From: an uncultured Candidatus Saccharibacteria bacterium
GTDB lineage: Bacteria > Patescibacteriota > Minisyncoccia > Phycocordibacterales > UBA9973
Assembly: GCA_964398205.1 (NCBI GenBank)
Contig: CAYNLU010000001.1
Location: forward strand, 417 to 64,416
DNA: 64,000 bases
Direction: 5' to 3'
Positions 4,883 through 64,000 of this stretch are shown piece after piece. Within the stretch, counting starts at the first letter, position 1. Each line of letters begins with the position of its first letter. A program made the translations under genes and the position numbers. Below the pieces are notes generated by a model. The model saw nothing but the letters and a program-made list of their open reading frames with translations, was not told the origin of the DNA and searched no databases.

Positions 4883-4919
4883 AAAAAAAATTAATAATTT
4901 TTAATAAAATTAAACAATG

Positions 4920-4993
4920 TCCGCCCTCTTGGACTCGAACCAAGGACACTTCGAGTATAAGTCGAATGCTCTACCAACTGAGCTAAGGGCGGA
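4920..4993 (-). tRNA. tRNA-Ile (anticodon UAU)
   Basis: Full cloverleaf on the minus strand: acceptor CCGCCCU/AGGGCGG, D-arm GCUC-AGUUGGUA-GAGC, anticodon arm UUCGA-CUUAUAC-UCGAA, 5-nt variable loop, T-arm CUUGG-UUCGAGU-CCAAG, discriminator A. CCA is not encoded. Confidence 0.8.
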
Positions 4994-5715: not shown

Positions 5716-7599
5716 TTACACTGCTTTAAATTCCTCAGATTTTTTCGGGACGATTCCAAAAGAAGAAATAAGCTCATCGTATTCGGCTTGCTCTAAAGTT
5801 TCTACTTCAATCAATTTCTTTGCGATAGCATCTAAGACTTCTTTTTTATCTTTTAGAACTTGCTCTGCTTTTTCTAATGCTTCGTGAATAATCTTTGAAA
5901 CTTCATTATCTATACTTTTCGCAACTTCTTCAGAGTAAGGCTTTTCGTCATTATTCCGTCCGATATATGCAATAGGTCCGATAACGTTAGACATACCCCA
6001 ACGTGTGACCATAGCGCGAGCCATATTAGTCGCAACTTGCAAATCTGAAGAAGGACCAGTAGTCAAATCTCCGAAAATCATTTTCTCGGCAACGTAACCT
6101 CCGAGAGACATAGCGATATCATCTTGGAATTCTTTACGAGATTGCAATTTTCTATCTTCTAGAGGAAGCTTCAAAGTATATCCTCCTGCAGATCCACGAG
6201 AAATAATCGAAACTTTATGCACAGGATCCGCATCAGGCAAAACCGAAGCCACAAGAGCGTGACCTGCTTCGTGATAAGCAGTTATTTCTTTTTCCTTTTT
6301 AGAAAGCAAATGACTCTTGCGTTCAGGTCCGAGCATAACTTTTTCGATAGCTTTTATCAAGTCTAATTGCGCAACCTTTTTCCTATCTTCACGAGCAGCA
6401 AGTATAGCTCCTTCATTCATCACAGAATATAAATCCGCCCCTGAAAATCCAGGAGTTCGTTCTGCTATAACTCGCAAATTTACATCCGCCTCTAAAGGCT
6501 TTTTCATAGAATGAATTTTAAGAATCTCTTCACGGTCATTACGATCAGGTAAATCTAAAGTTACCTTACGATCAAAACGTCCTGGGCGAACGAGTGCCGG
6601 ATCAAGTACGTCAGCTCGATTAGTCGCTGCCATAACGATAACTTTATCAGTCGGCTCGAAACCATCCATCTCAACTAAGATTTGATTTAAAGTTTGTTCA
6701 CGTTCATCATTACCTCCCCCTACTCCAGTTCCACGTACGCGTCCAATAGCATCTATCTCATCTACGAATATTATCGACGGAGATGCACGCTTTGCCATCT
6801 TGAAAAGATCTCGCACACGAGAAGCTCCAACTCCTACGAACATCTCCACGAATTCAGATCCTGAAAGATGAAAGAAAGGCACTCCTGCTTCCCCTGCTAC
6901 AGCTCGCGCAAGCATAGTTTTACCTGTACCTGGAGCACCGGTAAGCATAACTCCTTTAGGGATACGAGCTCCGATATCTAAGAACTTTTTAGGACTTTTT
7001 AAGAAATCTACTATCTCTCCAAGCTCTTCTTTAGCTTCTTTGGCTCCGGCTACGTCTTTAAAGGTAACGCGATTATTCTTATCATTTGGGTCTGTGATAC
7101 GAGCTTTAGATTGACCGAAAGTAAAAGCTTGCATACCTTGCCCTTTGACTTGACGAGAAAGATACCAAAAGAAAAATACAATAAATAATATAGGTAAAAG
7201 AAAAGGTAAAATATTTAATAAAACTACCATAAATCCGCTAGGATTTTTAACTTCGATATTTACGTTTTGAAGAGCAGTCTTATCTACTCCTAATTCGGAA
7301 AAGGTTTGAGAAAGCGATGCTTCAGCTTCTTTTTTAGTTTTTTTGATTTCTTCATTCAAGAAAACAGCTTCGATTTCTTCACCTTCTACTTTAATACTTT
7401 TAACTTGATTAGTAGATACAGCGTTTGCTAATTCAGAGATTGAGATTTCGGTAGTCTTTTTATTCTCTCCACTAATAGCGAGATAAAGAGCGGTCAAGAT
7501 CATCATAATCAAAATAGTAGAAACTATTGAAGATGATAAAGATCCTTCACTTTTTTTCTTTTTTTTATTACCCTTTTCATTTAAAAAATTTAAATTCAT
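5716..7599 (-). CDS. ftsH: ATP-dependent zinc metalloprotease FtsH
   Basis: N-terminal TM region, AAA+ Walker A GAPGTGKT, second region of homology, and protease HEAGHALV zinc motif. Confidence 0.95.
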
Positions 7600-7664
7600 A
7601 GCTATATGATAGCATAAAAAGTGTTAAAAACGAATAAAAAATAAAAATATGATAGAATCAATAT

Positions 7665-8108
7665 GTGAGTAGTTATATAGAAAACCGCAAAGCATATTTT
7701 GACTATGAAGTCCTCGAAAAATACGAAGGCGGTTTAGAATTACTCGGAACTGAAGTGAAATCTATCCGTAAAGGTAAAGCTTCCCTGCAAGGATCATTTA
7801 TCATCGTACGCGGAGGTGAGGTTTTCCTAATTAATGCAAATATCCAACCTTATCAAGTAAATAATATAGATAAAGATTACGATACTTTAAGGAATCGCAA
7901 AATCCTTTTAACTAAAAAAGAAATCCGAGAATTAGTAGAGACTGACCAAAATAAAAGTTTGACAATAGTACCTTTAGCCTTGTATAATAAAGGACGCAAA
8001 ATCAAAATAGAGATTGCAGTCGTTCGCGGTAAAAAGAAATTCGACAAAAGAGAAAGTATTAAGAAACGAGAAACCGATCGGATTATCAGACGCGAATACA
8101 AGAGGTAG
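7665..8108 (+). CDS. smpB: SsrA-binding protein SmpB
   Basis: Sequence NRKAYFDYEVLEKYEGGLELLGTEVKSIRKGKASLQGSF is typical SmpB. It sits immediately upstream of the tmRNA. Confidence 0.9.
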   Translation: MSSYIENRKAYFDYEVLEKYEGGLELLGTEVKSIRKGKASLQGSFIIVRGGEVFLINANIQPYQVNNIDKDYDTLRNRKILLTKKEIRELVETDQNKSLTIVPLALYNKGRKIKIEIAVVRGKKKFDKRESIKKRETDRIIRREYKR

Positions 8109-8128
8109 TTTTTTGAAAATTGTAAATT

Positions 8129-8511
8129 GGGGATGCAAGGCATAGACAAGAGCCGTATTTATTTATGCATACCGAGATGGATTCTCTCGTAAACTAATCC
8201 AAAGCCTAATTGCAAAATTAGCATCTAAGGTAAAAGTAGCTTCTCCATACTTCAGTATGAAGAACTTTGCTTTTGCTCCAGCTTTCGCTTAAGGAAGCCG
8301 GTGTCAGTTTTATAGACTTCCGATATATAAAAACTGGCAACATTTATCGGGATAAGAAATATATTGCCGAATATGTTTACGAAAATTTAGGCTCGATTAA
8401 AAAATATTTTGCTTATTTAATAATTTTTTAATCTAAAACGATAAATATGCTAAGTATGTAGATTTAAATGAAGAAACCTTTTGCACGGGGGTTCGATTCC
8501 CCCCTTCTCCA
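8129..8511 (+). ncRNA. ssrA: tmRNA (SsrA)
   Basis: 5' GGGGAUGCAAGGCAUAGAC resembles the tmRNA 5' end and D-loop analogue. The 3' tRNA-like domain is GGGGG-UUCGAUU-CCCCC plus acceptor CUUCUCC-A. An internal tag ORF ends ...NFAFAPAFA-UAA (8281-8292). The smpB-ssrA linkage supports the call. Confidence 0.75.
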
Positions 8512-8943
8512 CAAAATAAAAAACCACTTTGTACTTTTACTTAGGTGGTTTTTTGTTTTTTCAATTTAATAACTTTAATAATTATTTTTGATTTAAAAAT
8601 ATAAATCAAGACTATTTTTACCTTAAATAAGAATTTTGGAGTAAAAAGTTTTTTTATTAAAAAAGTTACTAATTGCTCAGTTGAGTTCCTGTTAGGATCT
8701 AAATCTACAATATACTCATATACCGTAAACTCTAAAGTATCTCGAATTGATTTAATTATTTTTCTCATTTCCAAGAACAATTTGATACAAATCCTAGTAT
8801 AGCAAAATGTATAAAAATACGAAGATAACCCTTCATAAAGTTATCCACAGGTTAAAGGTTTTAAGTATTGATTCTATATATAAAAGGAGTATATTAATAC
8901 TTATATTAGTTCTTTCAAAAGACTTGTGAAAGTTAGGTTGTTG

Positions 8944-8980
8944 GATTCGTTTTAAGCTTATATCGAGCTTAAAACGAATC
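8944..8980. repeat. 15-bp perfect inverted repeat (GATTCGTTTTAAGCT / AGCTTAAAACGAATC) with a 7-nt spacer
   Basis: Seen directly in the sequence, about 37 nt upstream of the 9017 ORF and its GGAG Shine-Dalgarno. Confidence 0.6.
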
Positions 8981-9016
8981 TAATAACTTTCTTAACTTTT
9001 TTAAAACACGGAGATA

Positions 9017-9376
9017 ATGAAGAAAATTTTTCTGATTTTATTTCTGGGGTTGATAGCATTAATTTGCGGTCCCCCACAAAGATTGTTCGCTTCAGCGAAT
9101 AGCAACGCCACAACAGTGGCACAGAAAATATATTTTAAGAATACCATCGCCGGCGCAATTGCCAGCACCATTACAAACCAGGAGCTTTCCTGGACAAAAA
9201 CGGTAGCTGCCGAACAGCCTGCATTGCCTGAATACACGGGCAAAACAAATTATTTTTTAAATAACCGGCAATTTGCCAAAATCCCTGATAGTAAACTTTT
9301 CAAGATCATTTATGATAATAATCTAAAAAACAAACTCATCCTGGGTTTCGGGCAACGCCTCCATCAGGAGGCATAA
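9017..9376 (+). CDS. small secreted hypothetical protein (signal peptide), GC-rich codon usage
   Basis: N-terminal MKKIFLILFLGLIALICG signal-like segment, preceded by a GGAG RBS. Local GC is clearly higher than in neighbouring genes. Confidence 0.45.
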   Translation: MKKIFLILFLGLIALICGPPQRLFASANSNATTVAQKIYFKNTIAGAIASTITNQELSWTKTVAAEQPALPEYTGKTNYFLNNRQFAKIPDSKLFKIIYDNNLKNKLILGFGQRLHQEA

Positions 9377-9486
9377 TCAAAGATGTCACCCCGTGGCATC
9401 CCCCTTAGCTACTCTGTAGCACAAGTCTGTACTGATTAGATCCTTATGGGTCAGATCAAAAAAACATAGTAGCAATACTAAATATT

Positions 9487-9514
9487 GACCCGTCCTCCGG
9501 ATGGGTCTTTTTTA
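9487..9514 (+). terminator. rho-independent terminator (GACCCGUCC...GGAUGGGUC + U-tract)
   Basis: 9-bp stem followed by TTTTTTATT, downstream of the 9017-9376 gene. Confidence 0.6.
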
Positions 9515-9543
9515 TTCCCATTTTTATATGATAAAATTAAATT

Positions 9544-10917
9544 ATGAATAAACCAACTTTAACTGTTTCGGGATATCGCGGGATTTGGGGCGAGAGTTTG
9601 ACTACCGATATTGCTCGCGAATATACTCGCGCTTTTATTAAATACTTGAAAGAATACGTAGGCTTAGAAAGACCGAAGGTTCTAGTAGCTATCGACGGAC
9701 GCGAAAGCGGTAAAGAAATTAAAGAGAATATTATCGAAGAATTTTTAAAATATGGCGTCGATGTAATCAACGGCGAATTACTCCCTACCCCGGTACTAAT
9801 CTGGAGTATTAGAAAATTCAGCTATGACGGCGGAATAATGATAACCGCAAGTCACAACCCTCGCGAATATAACGGACTGAAATTTATAAATAAAAATGCT
9901 TCTTTCTTAAATCAAACTGAGATAAATCAGATAAATTTATATAAAGAGAAAAATGATTTAGAAGTCGCGAGCGTACCCGGAACTTTACTAAATAAAGAGA
10001 TAGAAATTCCAAACTTTGTAGATACTTACGTAGATAATCTGATTGCAAACTTTGATAAAGAATTAATAAGTAGCAAAAGGTTCAAGGTAGTTGCCGATAT
10101 GATAAATGCTTCGGCTTGTGCTATCGATCCGGATTTATTCGCGGAGCTTGGTATCGAACTTGTACCGCTTAATAATATTCCTGACGGAGACTTTGGGCAT
10201 AAACCGGAGCCACTTGCCGAAAACCTAACAAATTTATCAGAATTCGTAAAAGATAATAATGCTGATATTGGTTTTGCTCATGATCCAGATGGAGATAGAC
10301 TAGTCGTCGTTGATGAGCATGGTGAAATAATTTTTGAAGAATATACTTTGGCACTTTGCATAGAAAGCGTTTTGAGTAAAGAAGAAAATCAAGGTCGCGA
10401 TATTGTCGTAAATTTATCAACTTCAAATACTAATCGAGATATTGCAGAGAAATACGGTGGTACAACTTACCTTTCTCCAGTTGGAGAACTAAATGTAGTA
10501 GAAGAAATGAAAAAAAGAAACGCAATTATCGGAGGTGAAGGTAGCGGAGGGGTTATCTACCCTAAGCTCAACTTTGCTCGAGACGGTTTCGTGGCGATAT
10601 TACTCATACTCGATATGCTCGCTCGTGAAAATAAAAAGCTAAGTGAAAAAGTAGCTGAATTACCTAAATACTTTATGCAAAAAATTAAAGGAGAAATCAA
10701 AGAGAACTTTCCTAATAGTCTAGAGCAATTTAAAGAAACTTTTAAAGACGGCAAAATAACTGATACTGACGGATTGCGGTACGATTTCCCAGATAAATCC
10801 TTTATTCATTTTAGACGTTCGAATACAGAGCCAATCTGGCGTTTACTTGCAGAAGCAAAAGACGAAAATAGACTAAAAGAGCTAATAAAACAAGCACAGG
10901 AAATATTAAATGCTTAA
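9544..10917 (+). CDS. alpha-D-phosphohexomutase family protein (phosphoglucosamine mutase / phosphomannomutase-like)
   Basis: Active-site loop TASHNP, and SGYRGIWGE resembles the GxSGxRG motif. The 457-aa, four-domain length fits the family. Confidence 0.8.
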   Translation: MNKPTLTVSGYRGIWGESLTTDIAREYTRAFIKYLKEYVGLERPKVLVAIDGRESGKEIKENIIEEFLKYGVDVINGELLPTPVLIWSIRKFSYDGGIMITASHNPREYNGLKFINKNASFLNQTEINQINLYKEKNDLEVASVPGTLLNKEIEIPNFVDTYVDNLIANFDKELISSKRFKVVADMINASACAIDPDLFAELGIELVPLNNIPDGDFGHKPEPLAENLTNLSEFVKDNNADIGFAHDPDGDRLVVVDEHGEIIFEEYTLALCIESVLSKEENQGRDIVVNLSTSNTNRDIAEKYGGTTYLSPVGELNVVEEMKKRNAIIGGEGSGGVIYPKLNFARDGFVAILLILDMLARENKKLSEKVAELPKYFMQKIKGEIKENFPNSLEQFKETFKDGKITDTDGLRYDFPDKSFIHFRRSNTEPIWRLLAEAKDENRLKELIKQAQEILNA

Positions 10918-50769: not shown

Positions 50770-53067
50770 TTATTGATTTAAAAGTTTAATAGTATTAAAT
50801 CCTAGGATTCCATCTACCTTGAGATTATTAGCTTTTTGGAATTTCTTCAAAGCAAGCTCGGTATTATATCCAAAGAAAGTTATTTCTTTAGAATTTTCTG
50901 TGCCTTTTACTTTATAGCCTTTTTCATTCAATTTCTTTTGTAAACATTTTACTTCTTGATTGTCGATCCCCTTCATTAGATTTTTAGATAAAGTACAAGA
51001 ATTTGATGTTAAAGTAGTTTCTGCCCCTAAAACCTTACTAGGTCCACTATGAGTACCACCTACACATTTATAACTAAAATGATTGCTATAAAAAGTTTCG
51101 CTAGCGCCAGTAGAAAGATTTATCCAATTAGGAATATATTCTTCTTTGTAATATTCGAGTGAAGTAGTAGCTGGATACCATTTTTTACAGAAGTTTAGTA
51201 TTTCATTTGTATGAACATAACCACTATTTAAATCAGTTACCCAAAAACCTTTATCATTCAAATATTGAGAAAGTTTAGTCCCCCAAATACTTACTCGAGG
51301 AGTTAAATCTAAAGAAGCAGTATTAGCAACCGGAGGATTAATTACTGTAATATTGCAAGATTGACCAGTAGTCATACTATAACCATTATTAGAAGCACAT
51401 CCAGGTAGATAATTAGGATTTTGAGTTGCATTAATAGTTATTGATTTTTCTACTAGTAAAGGACCTCCTTGATTTTTACAGGTTAAGGTATAAGTTTTTG
51501 ATCCCAAGAAATCTATATTGATAGTTAAGTTATCTTCTTCATCTTTACTACCAGTCCATGCACCCGAAGCTTCACAGAGTGATACCCCAGTAGCTTTCCA
51601 AGATAAATTAGTTTGACCTCCAAAATACAAATTAGTTGGATTTGCGGTAAATGCTAAACTCGCAGTTGGAGGTATAGGGTAACAATTTGGATAAGTACCA
51701 GTCGTACCGGTAGGACAAACTGTTTTTATACAATTTGGATAAGTGCCTGTATAACCTGAAGGACAAAATACTGGATCAACTATATAAACCCCAACTTGAA
51801 CACTATTAGCTGCAATTCCCCCAATTCCGGTACAAGTTAACGTGAAAGTTGTAGTTGTATTTAAATTATAAATAATTTCAGAACCACTTGTAGGTTTTGT
51901 TCCAGACCATCCACCCCCTGCAACACAAGAAGTAGCATTAGTAGAATTCCAAGTTAAAGTAACAGCTTGACCTGACTCTACACTATTTGTAGATGCATTA
52001 ATATTTACAGTAATTATTCCTGGTTTTTTAACTTCAACTGTTCTTGAAATAACTTTACTTATTCCTACAGATTCTCCAGTACAAGTTAATGTAAACTTCG
52101 TTGGAGTTGTAATATTTGAAATTACTTCGCTACCTGAGAGAGGTTTAGCTCCAGTCCAACCATCGCTTGCAGTACACTCTTTTGCATTTTTTGTACTCCA
52201 AGTTAGAGTTGTACTACCCCCATAATCAATTCCAAGAGGATTTATATTGAAAGTTATAATAGGTATAATTGGATTTGCGACTGATACTGTTTTAGAAGCA
52301 AAAGCAGAACCTTGAGTATTGTTACAAGTTATACTAAATATAGTAGGAAGTATTAAATTTGAAACTACTTCGCTACCTGAGAGAGGTTTATTACCTGACC
52401 ATCCTCCGCTAGCAATACAAGAATCTGCATTAGTAGAAGTCCAAGTTAAAGTTGTACTACCTCCGTAACTAACTCCAATAGGGTCTAGAGAGAAATTAAC
52501 ACTTGGTTTAGGTATAAATACAGGTAAACAGTTTGGCCAAGTTCCAGTCATTCCTTCTGGGCAAGATTTAACACAACTACCCCCAGTATCTACACCAGTC
52601 TCATCTCCGTTTAAAATACCATCAAAACAACTTTCAGTTATAGTTGTACAATTTCCACCTTGATCAATTCCAGTTTCTCCCCAATCTTGAATACCGTTAA
52701 AACAATTTTCATTTGAAGTTTCTGCACAACTCAAATCTTTAATTTTTTCTTTAGTCAAAGAACCTACGAAACCTAAAGCTGGTTTTATATTATTAGCTTT
52801 TTGAAAATTAAGCACAGCTTTCAAAGTAGAAGTTCCAAAATATCCACTAGGATTAACACTTAAATAACCTTGAGATTTTAGATATTTTTGCAAAATTGTA
52901 ACTTCACCTTTTTTATTAATATCTCTATCTCCGAATTTAAGATTATTTTGTAAATCTATACATTCCGAAGTACTACCGCTCCCAGTCTGAGCTTTCGCAA
53001 GATTAGGTGCTAATACAAAACTAAACAAAAGGATAAAAACTAACGAGATTTTTAAATATTTTTTCAT
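50770..53067 (-). CDS. secreted surface protein with N- and C-terminal peptidoglycan-binding-like domains, a Cys-rich module and four tandem Ig-like repeats
   Basis: Signal peptide. PG_binding-like segments (YLKSQGY...GYFGTSTLKAVLNFQKANNI and KFQKANNLKVDGILGFNTI). Repeated 70-aa units (...GGSTTLTW.T.NA..C.ASGGWSG.KP.SGSE...). Confidence 0.6.
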   Translation of the reverse strand: MKKYLKISLVFILLFSFVLAPNLAKAQTGSGSTSECIDLQNNLKFGDRDINKKGEVTILQKYLKSQGYLSVNPSGYFGTSTLKAVLNFQKANNIKPALGFVGSLTKEKIKDLSCAETSNENCFNGIQDWGETGIDQGGNCTTITESCFDGILNGDETGVDTGGSCVKSCPEGMTGTWPNCLPVFIPKPSVNFSLDPIGVSYGGSTTLTWTSTNADSCIASGGWSGNKPLSGSEVVSNLILPTIFSITCNNTQGSAFASKTVSVANPIIPIITFNINPLGIDYGGSTTLTWSTKNAKECTASDGWTGAKPLSGSEVISNITTPTKFTLTCTGESVGISKVISRTVEVKKPGIITVNINASTNSVESGQAVTLTWNSTNATSCVAGGGWSGTKPTSGSEIIYNLNTTTTFTLTCTGIGGIAANSVQVGVYIVDPVFCPSGYTGTYPNCIKTVCPTGTTGTYPNCYPIPPTASLAFTANPTNLYFGGQTNLSWKATGVSLCEASGAWTGSKDEEDNLTINIDFLGSKTYTLTCKNQGGPLLVEKSITINATQNPNYLPGCASNNGYSMTTGQSCNITVINPPVANTASLDLTPRVSIWGTKLSQYLNDKGFWVTDLNSGYVHTNEILNFCKKWYPATTSLEYYKEEYIPNWINLSTGASETFYSNHFSYKCVGGTHSGPSKVLGAETTLTSNSCTLSKNLMKGIDNQEVKCLQKKLNEKGYKVKGTENSKEITFFGYNTELALKKFQKANNLKVDGILGFNTIKLLNQ
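51450..52500 (-). repeat. intragenic tandem repeats (about four 210-230 bp units) encoding Ig-like modules of the surface protein
   Basis: Repeated protein motif LTW(T/S)STNA..C.A.GGW(S/T)G.KP.SGSE. Coordinates are approximate. Confidence 0.5.
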
Positions 53068-56573: not shown

Positions 56574-57137
56574 TTAGTTTAAAGAAGGGTTTTCAGGAAA
56601 CCAAGTTTTTTCTAAAAGTTCATACTTTGCATTTAGTTTCTTGTACTCTTTTCGCAAAGAATCTATATCTTCTAAAGTAATATTTTCCTCATTAATTTTT
56701 TTACTCAGAAAATCAACTTGTATTTTTAAAAAATAAATTTGTTTTTCTAAATCAGTAGTCTCAGGTATACCGTCCTCTAGAGAAAAACTACCGTGTAGTT
56801 GAAAATTCTTCTTGTTTAATTCTTTTAACTTTTCGGTATCTGAATTTAGTTGATTTAATAAATCTTCCTTTTTTTGAATCAAAGAAACAATATTGTATAG
56901 TTGGTCTTTTAAATCAGTAAAATATTCTTTTTGTTTATCTTGAAATGAATCAATAAAATCATTCATTTTTTCTAATTTTTCGGTATTTTGCATATCCTCC
57001 TCTCTACCTATAATCTTACGAATACGATAATCTTCTTCTAAAGTATCTTCATTGTTTTTTAATAAATCTAAACCTCCCACAATTTTCTTTGCTTCTTCTT
57101 TAGCCTTATCACTTTTAAACCAATTAAATCCTTCCAT
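56574..57137 (-). CDS. hypothetical coiled-coil protein
   Basis: 187 aa, E/K/L-rich heptads. Confidence 0.4.
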   Translation of the reverse strand: MEGFNWFKSDKAKEEAKKIVGGLDLLKNNEDTLEEDYRIRKIIGREEDMQNTEKLEKMNDFIDSFQDKQKEYFTDLKDQLYNIVSLIQKKEDLLNQLNSDTEKLKELNKKNFQLHGSFSLEDGIPETTDLEKQIYFLKIQVDFLSKKINEENITLEDIDSLRKEYKKLNAKYELLEKTWFPENPSLN

Positions 57138-57205
57138 ACCTATATTTTATACCCCAAATACAAAAAGTTCAAATATGTAAAATATTTGAACTTTTTGTAT
57201 TTTTG

Positions 57206-57278
57206 GGTGCCTATCGGGAGTCGAACCCGAATTAGCGGAACCACAACCCGCTGTGTTAACCATTACACCATAGGCACC
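57206..57278 (-). tRNA. tRNA-His (GUG) with an encoded G-1
   Basis: Acceptor GUGCCUA/UAGGCAC with an extra 5' G and discriminator C73. Anticodon arm GCGGG-UUGUGGU-UCCGC. T-arm UCGGG-UUCGACU-CCCGA. Confidence 0.8.
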
Positions 57279-60868: not shown

Positions 60869-62368
60869 TTAATTTGATAATTCAGATTCAAGAATTTTTA
60901 CTCTTTCTTTGAGAGCTTCTAATCGAGCACGATATCCTGCTATTTCATCTTGTTGCTCTTGTATGGCTTTCGTCATAGGGGCAATTAACTCAGTATACCT
61001 CATAGTCTTACCTCTAAACTCCGTATTATCAGTCAAAACAATATTAGTATTCTTACCTATAGCACTTTCTACTTCTTGAGCTATGAAGCCGTAGTCTATA
61101 CCATTACCTTGTTTCATAGTATATGATACTGGACGTAGTTTCTTTATGAATTCTAGACCTAAGTCTGAGTCGTTTATGTTTTCTTTGAGGCGGAGGTCGG
61201 AAGGGAAAGACCAAGCCACCTGTAAATCTATAGAAGTTACATTAGTATCACCAATACGAACAGCATTAGAATTATTTGCCACTGCCCCATACCCAATAGC
61301 AATTGCATTACTAAGACTACTTGTTGAAGTCTCTGCATCATATCCTATAGCAGTATTATTATTACCAGTTACATTTGTAGATAAAGCACTAGTTCCAACT
61401 GCTGTATTAGAATCTCCAGTATTATAGTAAAGTGTATTCATTCCTAAACTAGTATTATCATTACCTGGTGGATTAGCTAATAACGAATTTGTACCGATAG
61501 CTGTATTATTATTACCTACAGAGTTATAAAGCAAAGTCGCATAACCAGCTGCTGTATTATTAGAACCTGTATTTATTTTCCATGAAGAATAACTTCCTAA
61601 AGCTGTATTATTAGAACCAGAAGAAAGACTTATCATAGAAGAATAACCAACTCCTGTATTATTAATACCGGTTACAGTTAAATTACCAGCACTTAATCCA
61701 GCAAATATATTACCTGTACCTGTATTATGCATAAACAAAGTAGAACCTCTATAAATATTTGTATTACTACCTAATACAACATTATCTAAAACATTAAACA
61801 AAGAAACTACGGCTCCTGCATCAACCCAACCATTATTTCCAGAACTCGCTCCATTTACTGCTGTTGTTACAAAAGCAGTGGTAGCTAATTTATCGCTATT
61901 ATCATTACTACTTGGAGTTGGGGCTTGCAATGAACCTAAAAAGGTAGGTCCATCTAAATTAGCTTTTAAGTTTAAAGCAGAATTAAGATCAGCTTGCTGA
62001 GTATATAAGTCACCGTTCACATTACCAATACTACCCCAAACAGTTCCAGACCCAGCTCCCAAGTTCTGCCAAGTAGCATTACCATAAGCATCAGAAGTTA
62101 GAACTTTACTAGCTCCTGCTCCTGTAGGAATTTGAATAGTATTATCAAATATTACCGGGCCCAATACTCGAAAACCATTTACTACCATCAAACCATTTTT
62201 AGTTTGATAATCAGGCCCTACATTGATAGGATAAGAAATATTATTATTAGGTGGAGTAGAGCTTGTATTAAAAAATAGTGCTGAAACCGAGTCCGCAAAA
62301 GAAAACACCATCATAAATAAAATGATTAAAGTAATTAATATTTTATGTTTTAAAAAGTTATTTGGCAT
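60869..62368 (-). CDS. fibre-like surface protein with Gly/Asn/Thr repeats and a C-terminal peptidase S74 (tail-fibre intramolecular chaperone) domain; paralog 1
   Basis: Signal/TM anchor, KVLTSDA.G.ATW and LATTAFV motifs, repeats G.NNTA.G, and C-terminal SDLRLKENI...YGFIAQEVE chaperone-domain signature followed by a coiled-coil. Confidence 0.7.
   Translation of the reverse strand: MPNNFLKHKILITLIILFMMVFSFADSVSALFFNTSSTPPNNNISYPINVGPDYQTKNGLMVVNGFRVLGPVIFDNTIQIPTGAGASKVLTSDAYGNATWQNLGAGSGTVWGSIGNVNGDLYTQQADLNSALNLKANLDGPTFLGSLQAPTPSSNDNSDKLATTAFVTTAVNGASSGNNGWVDAGAVVSLFNVLDNVVLGSNTNIYRGSTLFMHNTGTGNIFAGLSAGNLTVTGINNTGVGYSSMISLSSGSNNTALGSYSSWKINTGSNNTAAGYATLLYNSVGNNNTAIGTNSLLANPPGNDNTSLGMNTLYYNTGDSNTAVGTSALSTNVTGNNNTAIGYDAETSTSSLSNAIAIGYGAVANNSNAVRIGDTNVTSIDLQVAWSFPSDLRLKENINDSDLGLEFIKKLRPVSYTMKQGNGIDYGFIAQEVESAIGKNTNIVLTDNTEFRGKTMRYTELIAPMTKAIQEQQDEIAGYRARLEALKERVKILESELSN
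61016..61204. repeat. 189-bp segment 100% identical to 62519-62707 (encodes the S74 chaperone core of both paralogs)
   Basis: Verified by direct reading of both copies. Flanks diverge on both sides. Confidence 0.85.
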
Positions 62369-63943
62369 TTAATTTTTATTTTTTAAACTTTCTAAATATT
62401 CGACTCGTTTTTCATATTCTTCAACAGTTTTTTTATACTCTTCTATCACCTCTTGTTGTTCTTGGATTGCTTTAGTTAAAGGAGAAATTAAACTTGCATA
62501 ACGTAAAGTTTTCATACCAAACTCCGTATTATCAGTCAAAACAATATTAGTATTCTTACCTATAGCACTTTCTACTTCTTGAGCTATGAAGCCGTAGTCT
62601 ATACCATTACCTTGTTTCATAGTATATGATACTGGACGTAGTTTCTTTATGAATTCTAGACCTAAGTCTGAGTCGTTTATGTTTTCTTTGAGGCGGAGGT
62701 CGGAAGGAACTGAGTAATTAACTTGTCCTTCTATAACCGAAGTAGCTCCTCCATTATTAGGATCAGTATCATTATCAGGATTACCAATCCTAATTTTATT
62801 AGAATTAATAACTTCAATATTGTGACCAATAGCGGTACTATTACTGTAAAGATTAGCTACCCCTGCACTATATCCGATAGCAGTATTAACGTCACCGATT
62901 TGATTGTAACTTAAAGTTAAAGCTCCAACTCCAGTATTATTATTTCCAGAAGTATTCGGATACAAAGCATTATAACCAATAGCTACATTAGAATCTCCAC
63001 TAGTATTACTATACAAAGAATTAGCTCCAGCAGAAGTAAGATAATACCCATCATTTAAATTATTAAAAGCGGATTTATAGCCTAAAGCAATATTTTGACC
63101 TACAGCATTTGCTCCTGTGTTATACAAAGATTGATATCCTAAAGCAACCATCTGACCTGTAGATCCGTTTAATAACCTTAAAGCTCCCTCTCCAATACCC
63201 ACAGTATGACTAGAAACAGTACCTGAAATTGGACCAGCGCTCTTACCTAAAAATAAATTATACGAACCATAAGTATGTAAAAATCTTTCACTAGAAGCTG
63301 GAGAACCTACAGCATCAGATTTATATAAAACTGTATTACTTTCTAATTTAAGGTTATCAGTTAGAGTTGTTAAGGTTACGTTATTACCTGAATCTGTCCA
63401 ACCTCCTCCTGAGTTAGAACCTAAAAGAATTGCGTTATTTACAAAGGCAGTAGTAGCTAATCTAGTTGAATTATCTGAACCTGGAATTGCATTTAATGCT
63501 CTTGGTATGCCTGTAAAAATATTTAATCCTGACAAATTAGCTTTAGTGTTTAATGCTGATTGTAAATCTATTTGATTAGCTAAAGTTCCAGAAATTGAAC
63601 CCCAATTAATTTGCAAACTACTAGTTTGAGTTTTCCAGGTGGCAAAACCTTGCGCATCGGAGGTTAGAACCTTACCGGCTCCATACCCCGAAATCGGCAA
63701 AAGTAAGGTTGTATCGAAAATCACAGGCCCTAAAGATCTAAAACCTTCATCTATAACTAAAGCTCCTAGTTTTTGCTGAGAAGATAAACTTGTATTAAAT
63801 ACCGGCAAAAATCTAGAAGAACTTACTCCAGGGTTAGTATTCGGTATTTGCCAACCAGCAAAAGCAGTCAAAGTAAAAGAAATAAATAAAATTATTATTA
63901 CTAACTTTCCAACATATTTAATTTTAAATTTATTAAAATTCAT
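62369..63943 (-). CDS. fibre-like surface protein with C-terminal peptidase S74 chaperone domain; paralog 2
   Basis: Same architecture as paralog 1, with a divergent repeat region and an identical 62-aa chaperone core. Confidence 0.7.
   Translation of the reverse strand: MNFNKFKIKYVGKLVIIILFISFTLTAFAGWQIPNTNPGVSSSRFLPVFNTSLSSQQKLGALVIDEGFRSLGPVIFDTTLLLPISGYGAGKVLTSDAQGFATWKTQTSSLQINWGSISGTLANQIDLQSALNTKANLSGLNIFTGIPRALNAIPGSDNSTRLATTAFVNNAILLGSNSGGGWTDSGNNVTLTTLTDNLKLESNTVLYKSDAVGSPASSERFLHTYGSYNLFLGKSAGPISGTVSSHTVGIGEGALRLLNGSTGQMVALGYQSLYNTGANAVGQNIALGYKSAFNNLNDGYYLTSAGANSLYSNTSGDSNVAIGYNALYPNTSGNNNTGVGALTLSYNQIGDVNTAIGYSAGVANLYSNSTAIGHNIEVINSNKIRIGNPDNDTDPNNGGATSVIEGQVNYSVPSDLRLKENINDSDLGLEFIKKLRPVSYTMKQGNGIDYGFIAQEVESAIGKNTNIVLTDNTEFGMKTLRYASLISPLTKAIQEQQEVIEEYKKTVEEYEKRVEYLESLKNKN
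62519..62707. repeat. second copy of the 189-bp identical segment
   Basis: See 61016-61204. Confidence 0.85.
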
Positions 63944-64000
63944 TATTTTAATTTATTTTCTAATTCAACTAATCTTTTCTCAAAATCTTGTAATTCTTTC
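63943..64000 (-). CDS. 3' end of a third, partial fibre-like paralog (coiled-coil C-terminus ...KELQDFEKRLVELENKLK)
   Basis: Open minus-strand frame running to the window edge. The TAA stop at 63943-63945 overlaps the ATG of paralog 2 (TAATG). Confidence 0.4.
   Translation of the reverse strand, partial: KELQDFEKRLVELENKLK

Follow-up and report, generated by a model that had tools for sequence, protein, structure and literature searches.

A chromosomal array of three S74-chaperone fiber genes in a Patescibacteria genome, with evidence for gene conversion of the chaperone core

We analyzed a 64,000-nucleotide stretch of an uncultured bacterium (assembly GCA_964398205.1, contig CAYNLU010000001.1, positions 417 to 64,416; hereafter the window), at whose right-hand end a tandem array of genes with C-terminal S74 chaperone domains lies on the minus strand. 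All sequences used here are metagenome assemblies. We consider it probable that the array is a chromosomal three-gene operon, encoding proteins of 1152, 524, and 499 amino acids (aa), most likely in a member of Paceibacterota (Patescibacteria/candidate phyla radiation, CPR), and that its products descended from phage receptor-binding fibers and now act as exported, self-cleaving fibers, with adhesion as their most likely role. A comparison of three genomes strongly supports recurrent gene conversion (concerted evolution) of the chaperone core among the three paralogs, and the sequence pattern is the classical signature of that process.

A preliminary description of the window had named two complete genes of one architecture, and open reading frames of the expected lengths are present at 60869-62368 and 62369-63943. 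The features of the array are as follows, with AlphaFold2 abbreviated as AF2.

60869..62368, minus strand: gene 1, last of the operon; 499-aa predicted exported protein with a phage-fiber-like architecture (open reading frame, Pfam S74, PHROG phrog_4636, AF2)
62279..62368, minus strand: gene 1, predicted Sec signal peptide, aa 1-30, MPNNFLKHKILITLIILFMMVFSFADSVSA with the cut before L (sole hydrophobic segment, basic n-region, V-S-A site)
61802..62200, minus strand: gene 1, conserved N-terminal module, aa 57-189, KVLTSDAxGxATW ... LNLKANL ... DKLATTAFV (PHROG matches, HMMER)
61202..61801, minus strand: gene 1, shaft, aa 190-389, 17-residue repeats GxxNTAxGxxxLxxNTx (repeat family D1, alignment, AF2, Foldseek)
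60998..61201, minus strand: gene 1, S74 intramolecular chaperone/autoprotease, aa 390-457, predicted cleavage at Ser390 in SDLRLK with Lys395
60872..60997, minus strand: gene 1, C-terminal helix, aa 458-499, presumed trimeric coiled coil (AF2)
61016..61204, minus strand: copy 1 of a 189-nt exact repeat, covering Pro389 and the first 62 chaperone codons, the gene-conversion tract
62369..63943, minus strand: gene 2, 524 aa, architecture as gene 1 (open reading frame, Pfam S74, PHROG)
63857-63943, minus strand: gene 2, predicted signal peptide, aa 1-29
63374-63766, minus strand: gene 2, module, aa 60-190
62705-63373, minus strand: gene 2, shaft, aa 191-413
62501-62704, minus strand: gene 2, S74 domain, aa 414-481
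62372-62500, minus strand: gene 2, helix, aa 482-524
62519..62707, minus strand: copy 2 of the 189-nt exact repeat
63943..64000, minus strand: gene 3, 3′ end (18 codons and stop), the rest lying on contig L001

The 499-aa and 524-aa proteins are 48% identical over their full length. The stop codon of gene 3 overlaps the ATG of gene 2 (TAATG) and that of gene 2 directly abuts the ATG of gene 1 (TAAATG), so that the three genes form one translationally coupled operon. Within the window, gene 3 consists only of 18 codons, KELQDFEKRLVELENKLK, followed by a stop (63946-63999), and on that basis the third paralog of the earlier account was a guess. An exact protein-sequence look-up retrieved two ENA metagenome contigs, L001 (21.7 kb) and L002 (8.9 kb), which are 100% identical to the window over their whole overlaps of 6782 and 3944 nt, respectively. 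L001 holds the complete gene 3 at 6543-10001; it encodes 1152 aa, its C-terminal residues are exactly the 18 at the window edge, and the guess was thereby borne out. From N- to C-terminus this long protein carries a signal-peptide-like start, about nine SSSDGTKL...YTSTDSGVTW units of the BNR/Asp-box type (Pfam and NCBIfam matches sub-threshold), three Ig-like repeats, and then the common module (KVLTSDAQGFATW...ATTAFV), 17-residue shaft repeats, S74 domain, and helix. Extending the count of paralogs upstream along L001, as had been suggested, gave exactly three S74 genes; the secreted proteins encoded beyond them lack the domain.

For comparison we used two related genomes. The nearest genome representative to the window (W) was a Candidatus Paceibacterota metagenome-assembled genome (MAG), JAGOSX010000014.1 (R; contig L003), and the second relative was GCA_031973535.1 (T; contig L022). 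Both show the same order, namely a long S74 gene truncated where the contig stops, then genes encoding proteins of 524 or 529 aa and of 499 aa, and then those for VKOR and a P-type ATPase, so that the adjacency of the three-gene array to the last two is kept in all three genomes.

The assignment of the C-termini to the S74 intramolecular chaperone agreed with profile searches. Pfam PF13884 (Peptidase_S74) matched the 499-, 524-, and 1152-aa proteins with 48.4, 48.5, and 47.2 bits against a cutoff of 22, spanning aa 390-437 and 414-461 of the two shorter ones (E about 1e-12). In the S74 mechanism, the C-terminal domain trimerizes, templates folding of the upstream shaft, and then cleaves before a serine and leaves; the catalytic pair of phage T5 pb1 is Ser1264/Lys1269, the same Ser/Lys+5 spacing occurs in endoNF, and an arginine of the neighboring subunit upstream of the cleavage site (Arg1250 in T5) makes cleavage trimer-dependent (PMC4690869). 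Ser390 and Lys395 of the 499-aa protein reproduce the T5 spacing. Residues S390, D391, and K395 were invariant among 60 homologs, the SDLRLK motif is found in all nine S74 genes of the three genomes, and 19 residues ahead of Ser390 there is a nearly invariant VRIG motif (R371, G373), whose arginine is a candidate equivalent of Arg1250. When a family profile was searched against the PDB, it retrieved the ICA domains of phage S16 gp37 (6f45, E 3e-11), 8jov, MyRF (7dc3), and GA-1 (3gud), whereas a search of the PDB with the single protein sequence gave no match. The structure, here an AF2 monomer model, had pLDDT values of 81-93 over aa 390-499 and included a 41-residue helix at 458-498 (pLDDT about 90). 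With Foldseek, the best PDB fold for this C-terminus was the MyRF ICA domain 7dc3 (target-normalized TM score 0.60-0.65, probability 1.0), and the endoNF chaperone 3gw6 was also matched (probability 0.75-0.96). Of the final coiled coil described earlier, the terminal helix is seen in the model, and its trimeric coiled-coil state is presumed.

The shafts are filled by a 51-nt (17-codon) repeat family, D1, with many near-invariant Gly and Asn residues in its consensus across the 60-sequence alignment. AF2 run on that alignment gave pLDDT values of 86-96 over aa 200-380 and a regular stack of short strands; in the model, the shaft is a beta-solenoid built by one chain. The closest PDB folds found by Foldseek were YadA-like heads (CbpF 9gh4, BoaA 3s6l, and YadA 1p9h), with probabilities of 0.98-1.0 and weak E-values of 5e-3 to 6e-2. 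The fiber-like repeats of the preliminary description thus hold, as 17-residue units, and its "beta-helical" shaft gives way to a predicted single-chain beta-solenoid nearest to YadA-type heads. Measured from ATTAFV to the cleavage Ser, the shafts of the three paralogs span 228, 243, and 251 residues. Variability of the shaft between strains had been anticipated, and when we compared W with T, the distal shaft (aa ~240-400) was the most divergent part of both short proteins, at 38-65% aa identity versus 80-98% over the rest of these proteins and 88-91% for the neighboring VKOR and ATPase.

The best PHROG match of genes 1 and 2 was the tail spike family phrog_4636 (E 6e-41 and 8e-31, respectively); in NCBIfam, no family was found for either the 499-aa or the 524-aa protein. 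Of 8,000 candidates scored in a word-indexed search, more than 4,900 proteins reached E<=1e-5, with 30-52% identity over aa ~190-499 and names such as "tail fiber domain-containing protein," "Chaperone of endosialidase," and "trimeric autotransporter adhesin." The named matches belonged to Bacteroidota (Chitinophagaceae, Flavobacteriia) and Patescibacteria, and some (e.g., P0061) carry the Por_Secre_tail sorting domain of the type IX secretion system (T9SS) and are therefore clearly cellular. Full-length similarity, including the N-terminal module, was confined to a few Paceibacterota relatives (P0002, P0003, P0006-P0008, and P0013). On the viral side, 151 structures in BFVD matched the shaft-plus-S74 unit at E<1e-3, including phage S74 fibers; tail spikes and fibers of cultured phages (Staphylococcus, Pelagibacter, Roseobacter, and Lactococcus phages and cyanophages) were 27-35% identical over aa ~194-497, and IMG/VR contigs were 31-34% identical to the same unit. 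Our literature search on S74/ICA domains in Patescibacteria, Paceibacteria, and cellular bacterial fibers found no paper characterizing a cellular bacterial member; a paper on hypervariable surface proteins of Gracilibacteria turned out to be unrelated to S74 fibers.

Because the modeled shaft resembles adhesin heads and its distal part is variable, adhesion to a partner cell or polymer appears to be the most likely role suggested by the model. We regard it as rather unlikely that the exported proteins are instead released enzymes (tailspike-like glycan depolymerases or sialidase-like hydrolases) or matrix fibrils. Such a role would fit the classical association of S74 with endosialidases and capsule depolymerases (PMC4690869), the pond-water glycofibrils that are extracellular and carry an ICA domain at the C-terminus (bioRxiv 10.1101/2025.09.30.679562), and the fact that a cleaved signal peptide would leave no obvious tether, and the BNR/Asp-box region of the 1152-aa protein matches the glycosylhydrolase family NF045728 below threshold (64 bits where 175 are required, E 1e-17). 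However, the modeled shaft resembles adhesin heads and not the right-handed beta-helices of depolymerases, no catalytic family was above threshold in any of the three proteins, and the two short paralogs carry fiber parts only. A secreted enzyme or fibril role is possible especially for the long paralog with its BNR region. A survey of polymorphic toxins mentions "tail-fiber" repeats solely as carriers of toxins; the proteins studied here contain no toxin domain.

The N-termini bear on both export and origin. In all three paralogs and in their orthologs in the two other genomes, a basic stretch precedes a single hydrophobic stretch of ~15-20 residues and a small-x-small motif, with putative cleavage sites across the paralogs of A-F-A/G, T-L-A/G, and V-S-A/L (the slash marking the cut), and hydropathy indicated no further hydrophobic segment in the three proteins. 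This segment had first been taken for a membrane anchor; judged from these features, it is more likely a cleavable Sec signal peptide than a stable anchor. The module that follows is the best-conserved part of the proteins between species (92-100% aa identity). Its second half (LNLKANL..P.F.G....P...DNS.KLATTAFV) matched, over aa 73-121, the PHROG tail fiber families phrog_4209, 4549, 2631, and 454. An exhaustive HMMER search of 1.84 billion representatives found the module in 3889 proteins at E<=1e-3, many of which contain the unit 5-25 times in proteins of 600-6500 aa, and one of which matches Pfam PTR PF12789 ("Phage tail repeat like"). These matches indicate that the module holds a single copy of a common phage tail-fiber repeat.

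We next consider the genomic context. The genes downstream of the array encode VKOR, a P-type ATPase, tRNA-His, Sua5/YrdC, DUF1003, MurB, FKBP, SIMPL, and NusG, and open reading frames further downstream look like a ribosomal-protein cluster by their sizes and order only. No capsid, portal, terminase, tube, sheath, baseplate, or tail gene was found in the 60 kb downstream or the 10 kb upstream, in line with the earlier statement that no phage genes lie nearby: the downstream part is housekeeping and the upstream part encodes secreted repeat proteins. The only PHROG matches upstream were those of Ig repeats to generic "virion structural protein" families. The housekeeping context together with the predicted signal peptides marks the array as cellular and not as a prophage.

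In our assessment, the array is unlikely to encode receptor-binding proteins that assemble cytoplasmically on a particle, whether that of a phage, of a decayed prophage, or of a tailocin/contractile injection system. Every segment of the mature proteins does have phage tail-fiber or tail-spike homologs, the upstream 853-aa protein matches a "virion structural protein" PHROG through its Ig-like repeats, and ~5 kb of L001 further upstream lies beyond the examined stretch. On the other hand, the absence of particle genes from the two flanks just described, the signal-peptide-like starts of all three proteins and of both complete upstream neighbors, and the position of the array at the same housekeeping site in three genomes differing by 10-25% in DNA all speak for a cellular locus. 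Virion proteins are normally without signal peptides.

Directly upstream of the array, L001:199-6506 encodes three consecutive secreted proteins (at least 433 aa [partial], 853 aa, and 997 aa) with ~90-residue, Cys-pair Ig-like repeats and no S74 domain, the 997-aa protein also having a DUF5122/delta-60 propeller. The three share a C-terminal motif, SSG.GIPDYEEN in two and VKVPTYKEN in the third, that could be a sorting or processing signal. Together, these three Ig-repeat proteins and the three fibers form a six-gene surface-protein island.

As for the 189-nt repeat, its two copies (61016-61204 and 62519-62707) proved to be exactly identical and maximal, as first reported: the longest exact run at that offset is 189 nt, and the flanks fall to about 40-65% identity. 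By our own arithmetic, 189 straight matches have a probability of about 2e-9 at a background identity of 90%. We then aligned all nine genes of W, R, and T from 20 codons before the Ser to the stop codon. Within the 189-nt core, paralogs of the same genome were 98.4-99.5% identical in W (with one column beyond the exact run included), 93.7-98.9% in R, and 100% in T, versus 75.7-90.5% for all copies between genomes. In the 60 nt upstream of the core, paralogs were 37-63% identical except where the T tract extends and orthologs 48-100%, the low ortholog values between W or R and T arising because the longer tract of T overwrote the genes there. In the ~145 nt downstream, which encode the terminal helix, the relation was reversed: orthologs were 75-87% identical and paralogs 52-61% in W and R, or up to 74% in T, so that the helix is paralog-specific and conserved between species. 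Over the flanks generally, identity was 75-100% for orthologs and 37-74% for paralogs. Among paralogs, the longest stretch without a mismatch reached 140-189 nt in W, 43-94 nt in R, and 264-349 nt in T. The lineages thus differ in where their tracts end and in how old these are. The W tract begins, on its 5′ side, a single codon ahead of the cleavage Ser. In T, the last ~35 residues of the distal shaft region of the 499-aa gene were overwritten from the long paralog.

Between genomes, the core differs by 6-19 synonymous and 7-12 nonsynonymous codons out of 63. Synonymous divergence of this extent shows that the within-genome identity does not come from constraint at the nucleotide level, and we ruled out such constraint as its source. 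The pattern thus points strongly to gene conversion, which homogenizes the first ~63-116 codons of the released chaperone while shafts and terminal helices keep their paralog identity. The preliminary description had offered gene conversion or cassette shuffling. The first is supported by the three-genome comparison of paralogs and orthologs. Shafts and helices group by ortholog in the three genomes, with the same gene order at the same chromosomal site, and this stability argues against exchange of shaft cassettes. The related picture of variable shafts swapped onto a constant chaperone is likewise abandoned, since it is the chaperone core that gets overwritten. That the identity is an assembly or polishing artefact, or the result of selection on the nucleotides themselves as an RNA or regulatory element, is very improbable: although the data are short-read metagenome assemblies with a repeat near read length, and the two related MAG contigs break within the long gene, the identical sequence occurs in three assemblies from two samples, the assemblers kept apart copies that differ by single nucleotides in W and by 1-6% in R, the three genomes come from different projects and each has its own homogenized version and different tract ends, and the synonymous changes indicate that the core nucleotides are free to vary.

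Several side observations concern this region. In all six S74 genes of W and R, the SDLRL codons are TCC GAC CTC CGC CTC (window 61178-61201 and 62681-62704, with matching sites in L001 and L003), which are rare for this 32% GC genome: the share of TCC among Ser codons is 3%, that of CTC among Leu codons 7%, and that of CGC among Arg codons 10%. The T genome instead uses TCA GAC TTA AGA CTT. GC-biased conversion is a possible cause. The contigs of R and T both end within the long S74 gene (L003:1-48 and L022:1-3), which suggests that its internal repeats or the common chaperone core break short-read assemblies, and copy numbers of the S74 family in MAGs may be underestimated. Tandem arrays of 2-5 S74 genes were also seen in Bacteroidota MAGs (L006:6683-11231, L008:3391-6623, L009:486-2198, and L020:1635-10239), where neighboring copies are most alike around the chaperone (80-98% identity) and less so to either side of it. 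Homogenization of the chaperone among tandem paralogs may be a general property of the family.

From these observations, we propose the following mechanism. The three chains, with identical chaperone cores, would be made together from one mRNA and, as their N-termini suggest, exported through Sec by the N-terminal signal peptide. By analogy with the S74 family, trimerization would start from the C-terminal end through the chaperone and helix and guide three YadA-head-like beta-solenoids as they pack together; after a correct trimer has formed, the Ser/Lys+5 dyad would cleave at the Ser of SDLRLK and release the last ~110 residues. The mature product would be an extracellular fiber of about 360 to 1000 residues, depending on the paralog, with the tail-fiber-repeat module as the likely attachment end and the fast-evolving distal shaft as the likely ligand-binding end. 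Since the terminal helices are far better conserved between species than between paralogs, they are obvious candidates for sorting the chains, and may direct each chain into its correct trimer. A mixed ABC heterotrimer was judged less likely, given the unequal shaft lengths and the 2-5 copies in Bacteroidota arrays.

Several points weigh against this account of exported, self-cleaving fibers and of their gene conversion. Trimerization, cleavage, export, and surface location are all carried over from the family, the signal peptides were judged by eye and hydropathy only, and, were they cleaved, no tether of the fiber to the cell was identified here. The N-terminal 180 residues were modeled poorly (AF2, pLDDT 32-65), and the Pfam YadA_head match on the shaft was below threshold (E 0.045, 14.6 bits against a cutoff of 25). 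Bubble-popping in metagenome assembly could also inflate the exactness of the within-genome identity.

More speculatively, we suggest as a tentative possibility that a CPR bacterium domesticated phage receptor-binding fibers as its own exported apparatus for recognizing a host or substrate, in which the C-terminal helices would serve as a trimerization address code (for strict homotrimers or, less likely, a defined mixed trimer) and the distal shaft would set partner specificity. If true, an episymbiont would here possess a cellular equivalent of the determinants that set phage host range. To our knowledge, little is understood of how the ultra-small cells of CPR/Patescibacteria recognize and hold partner cells, apart from the type IV pili of Saccharibacteria. 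The locus offers a concrete, testable candidate for partner recognition, with three predicted exported fibers of phage ancestry and a variable distal shaft. It also provides an unusually clean natural case in which gene conversion is restricted to a folding module, one predicted to be shed once it has done its work, while the functional parts stay distinct, and it indicates that the large, uncharacterized "tail fiber domain-containing protein" family includes stable cellular operons and not prophage debris only.

Elsewhere in the window, we noted several features outside the array. Between the P-type ATPase and Sua5, positions 56574-57277 (minus strand) hold tRNA-His and a 187-aa Glu/Lys-rich open reading frame with no Pfam or PHROG match; the same place holds open reading frames of 173, 324, and 161 aa in L022:9984-12113 and of 173, 262, 324, and 184 aa in L003:9217-12128. 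A tRNA-Ile gene with anticodon UAU lies at 4919-4992 (minus strand) and would read AUA directly, without a lysidine-modified CAU tRNA, and a tmRNA gene at 8129-8512 (plus strand) has the predicted tag peptide AKLASKVKVASPYFSMKNFAFAPAFA. At 50770-53067 (minus strand), a 765-aa protein conserved in L022 has two C-terminal PG_binding_1 domains; unexpectedly, it also scored above the Pfam cutoff for APP_N, the amyloid A4 N-terminal heparin-binding domain (E 7e-6).

Finally, we compared the locus with known systems. Phage S74 fibers (K1F endoNF, the T5 pb1 L-shaped fiber, the GA-1/phi29 neck appendage, and S16 gp37) have the same C-terminal S74/ICA domain, Ser/Lys+5 dyad, and helix, and like our proteins they place a repetitive, trimer-type shaft upstream of S74, with a tail-fiber repeat at the N-terminus. 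Unlike them, the locus lies in a housekeeping chromosomal region without virion genes, its products bear a predicted N-terminal signal peptide, and it is a stable three-gene operon conserved across species; in addition, endoNF and pb1 form an interdigitated triple beta-helix, whereas the shaft here is predicted to be a beta-solenoid within each chain. Trimeric autotransporter adhesins (YadA, BoaA, and CbpF heads) resemble the locus in the chemistry of the GxxNTAxG repeat and probably in the predicted shaft fold, but our proteins end in S74 and a helix in place of a beta-barrel anchor and have a repeat period of 17 residues. Since that anchor is lacking (no Pfam match to YadA_anchor at E<=10 on sub-fragments or E<=0.1 on whole proteins), we rejected their identification as trimeric autotransporters.

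Cellular, non-viral use of the same self-cleaving trimerization domain is represented by MYRF and by the protist glycofibril candidates TLP-12, both with an ICA domain (C-terminal in the latter); such reuse is established for eukaryotic MYRF and suggested for the protist glycofibrils. In MYRF, cleavage frees a transcription factor from the endoplasmic reticulum membrane, whereas in our proteins the domain sits at the extreme C-terminus of a predicted exported fiber, as in phages. Another close system is the bacterial "tail fiber domain-containing protein" family, which shares the shaft repeats, S74 domain, and tandem arrays of the locus. The locus differs in having the predicted Sec signal peptide only and no T9SS domain, and in a conversion tract with a sharp boundary at the cleavage site. 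Proteins of this kind are thus already abundant in databases, and the locus is new through its CPR host, its stable three-gene operon, and this sharply bounded conversion tract.

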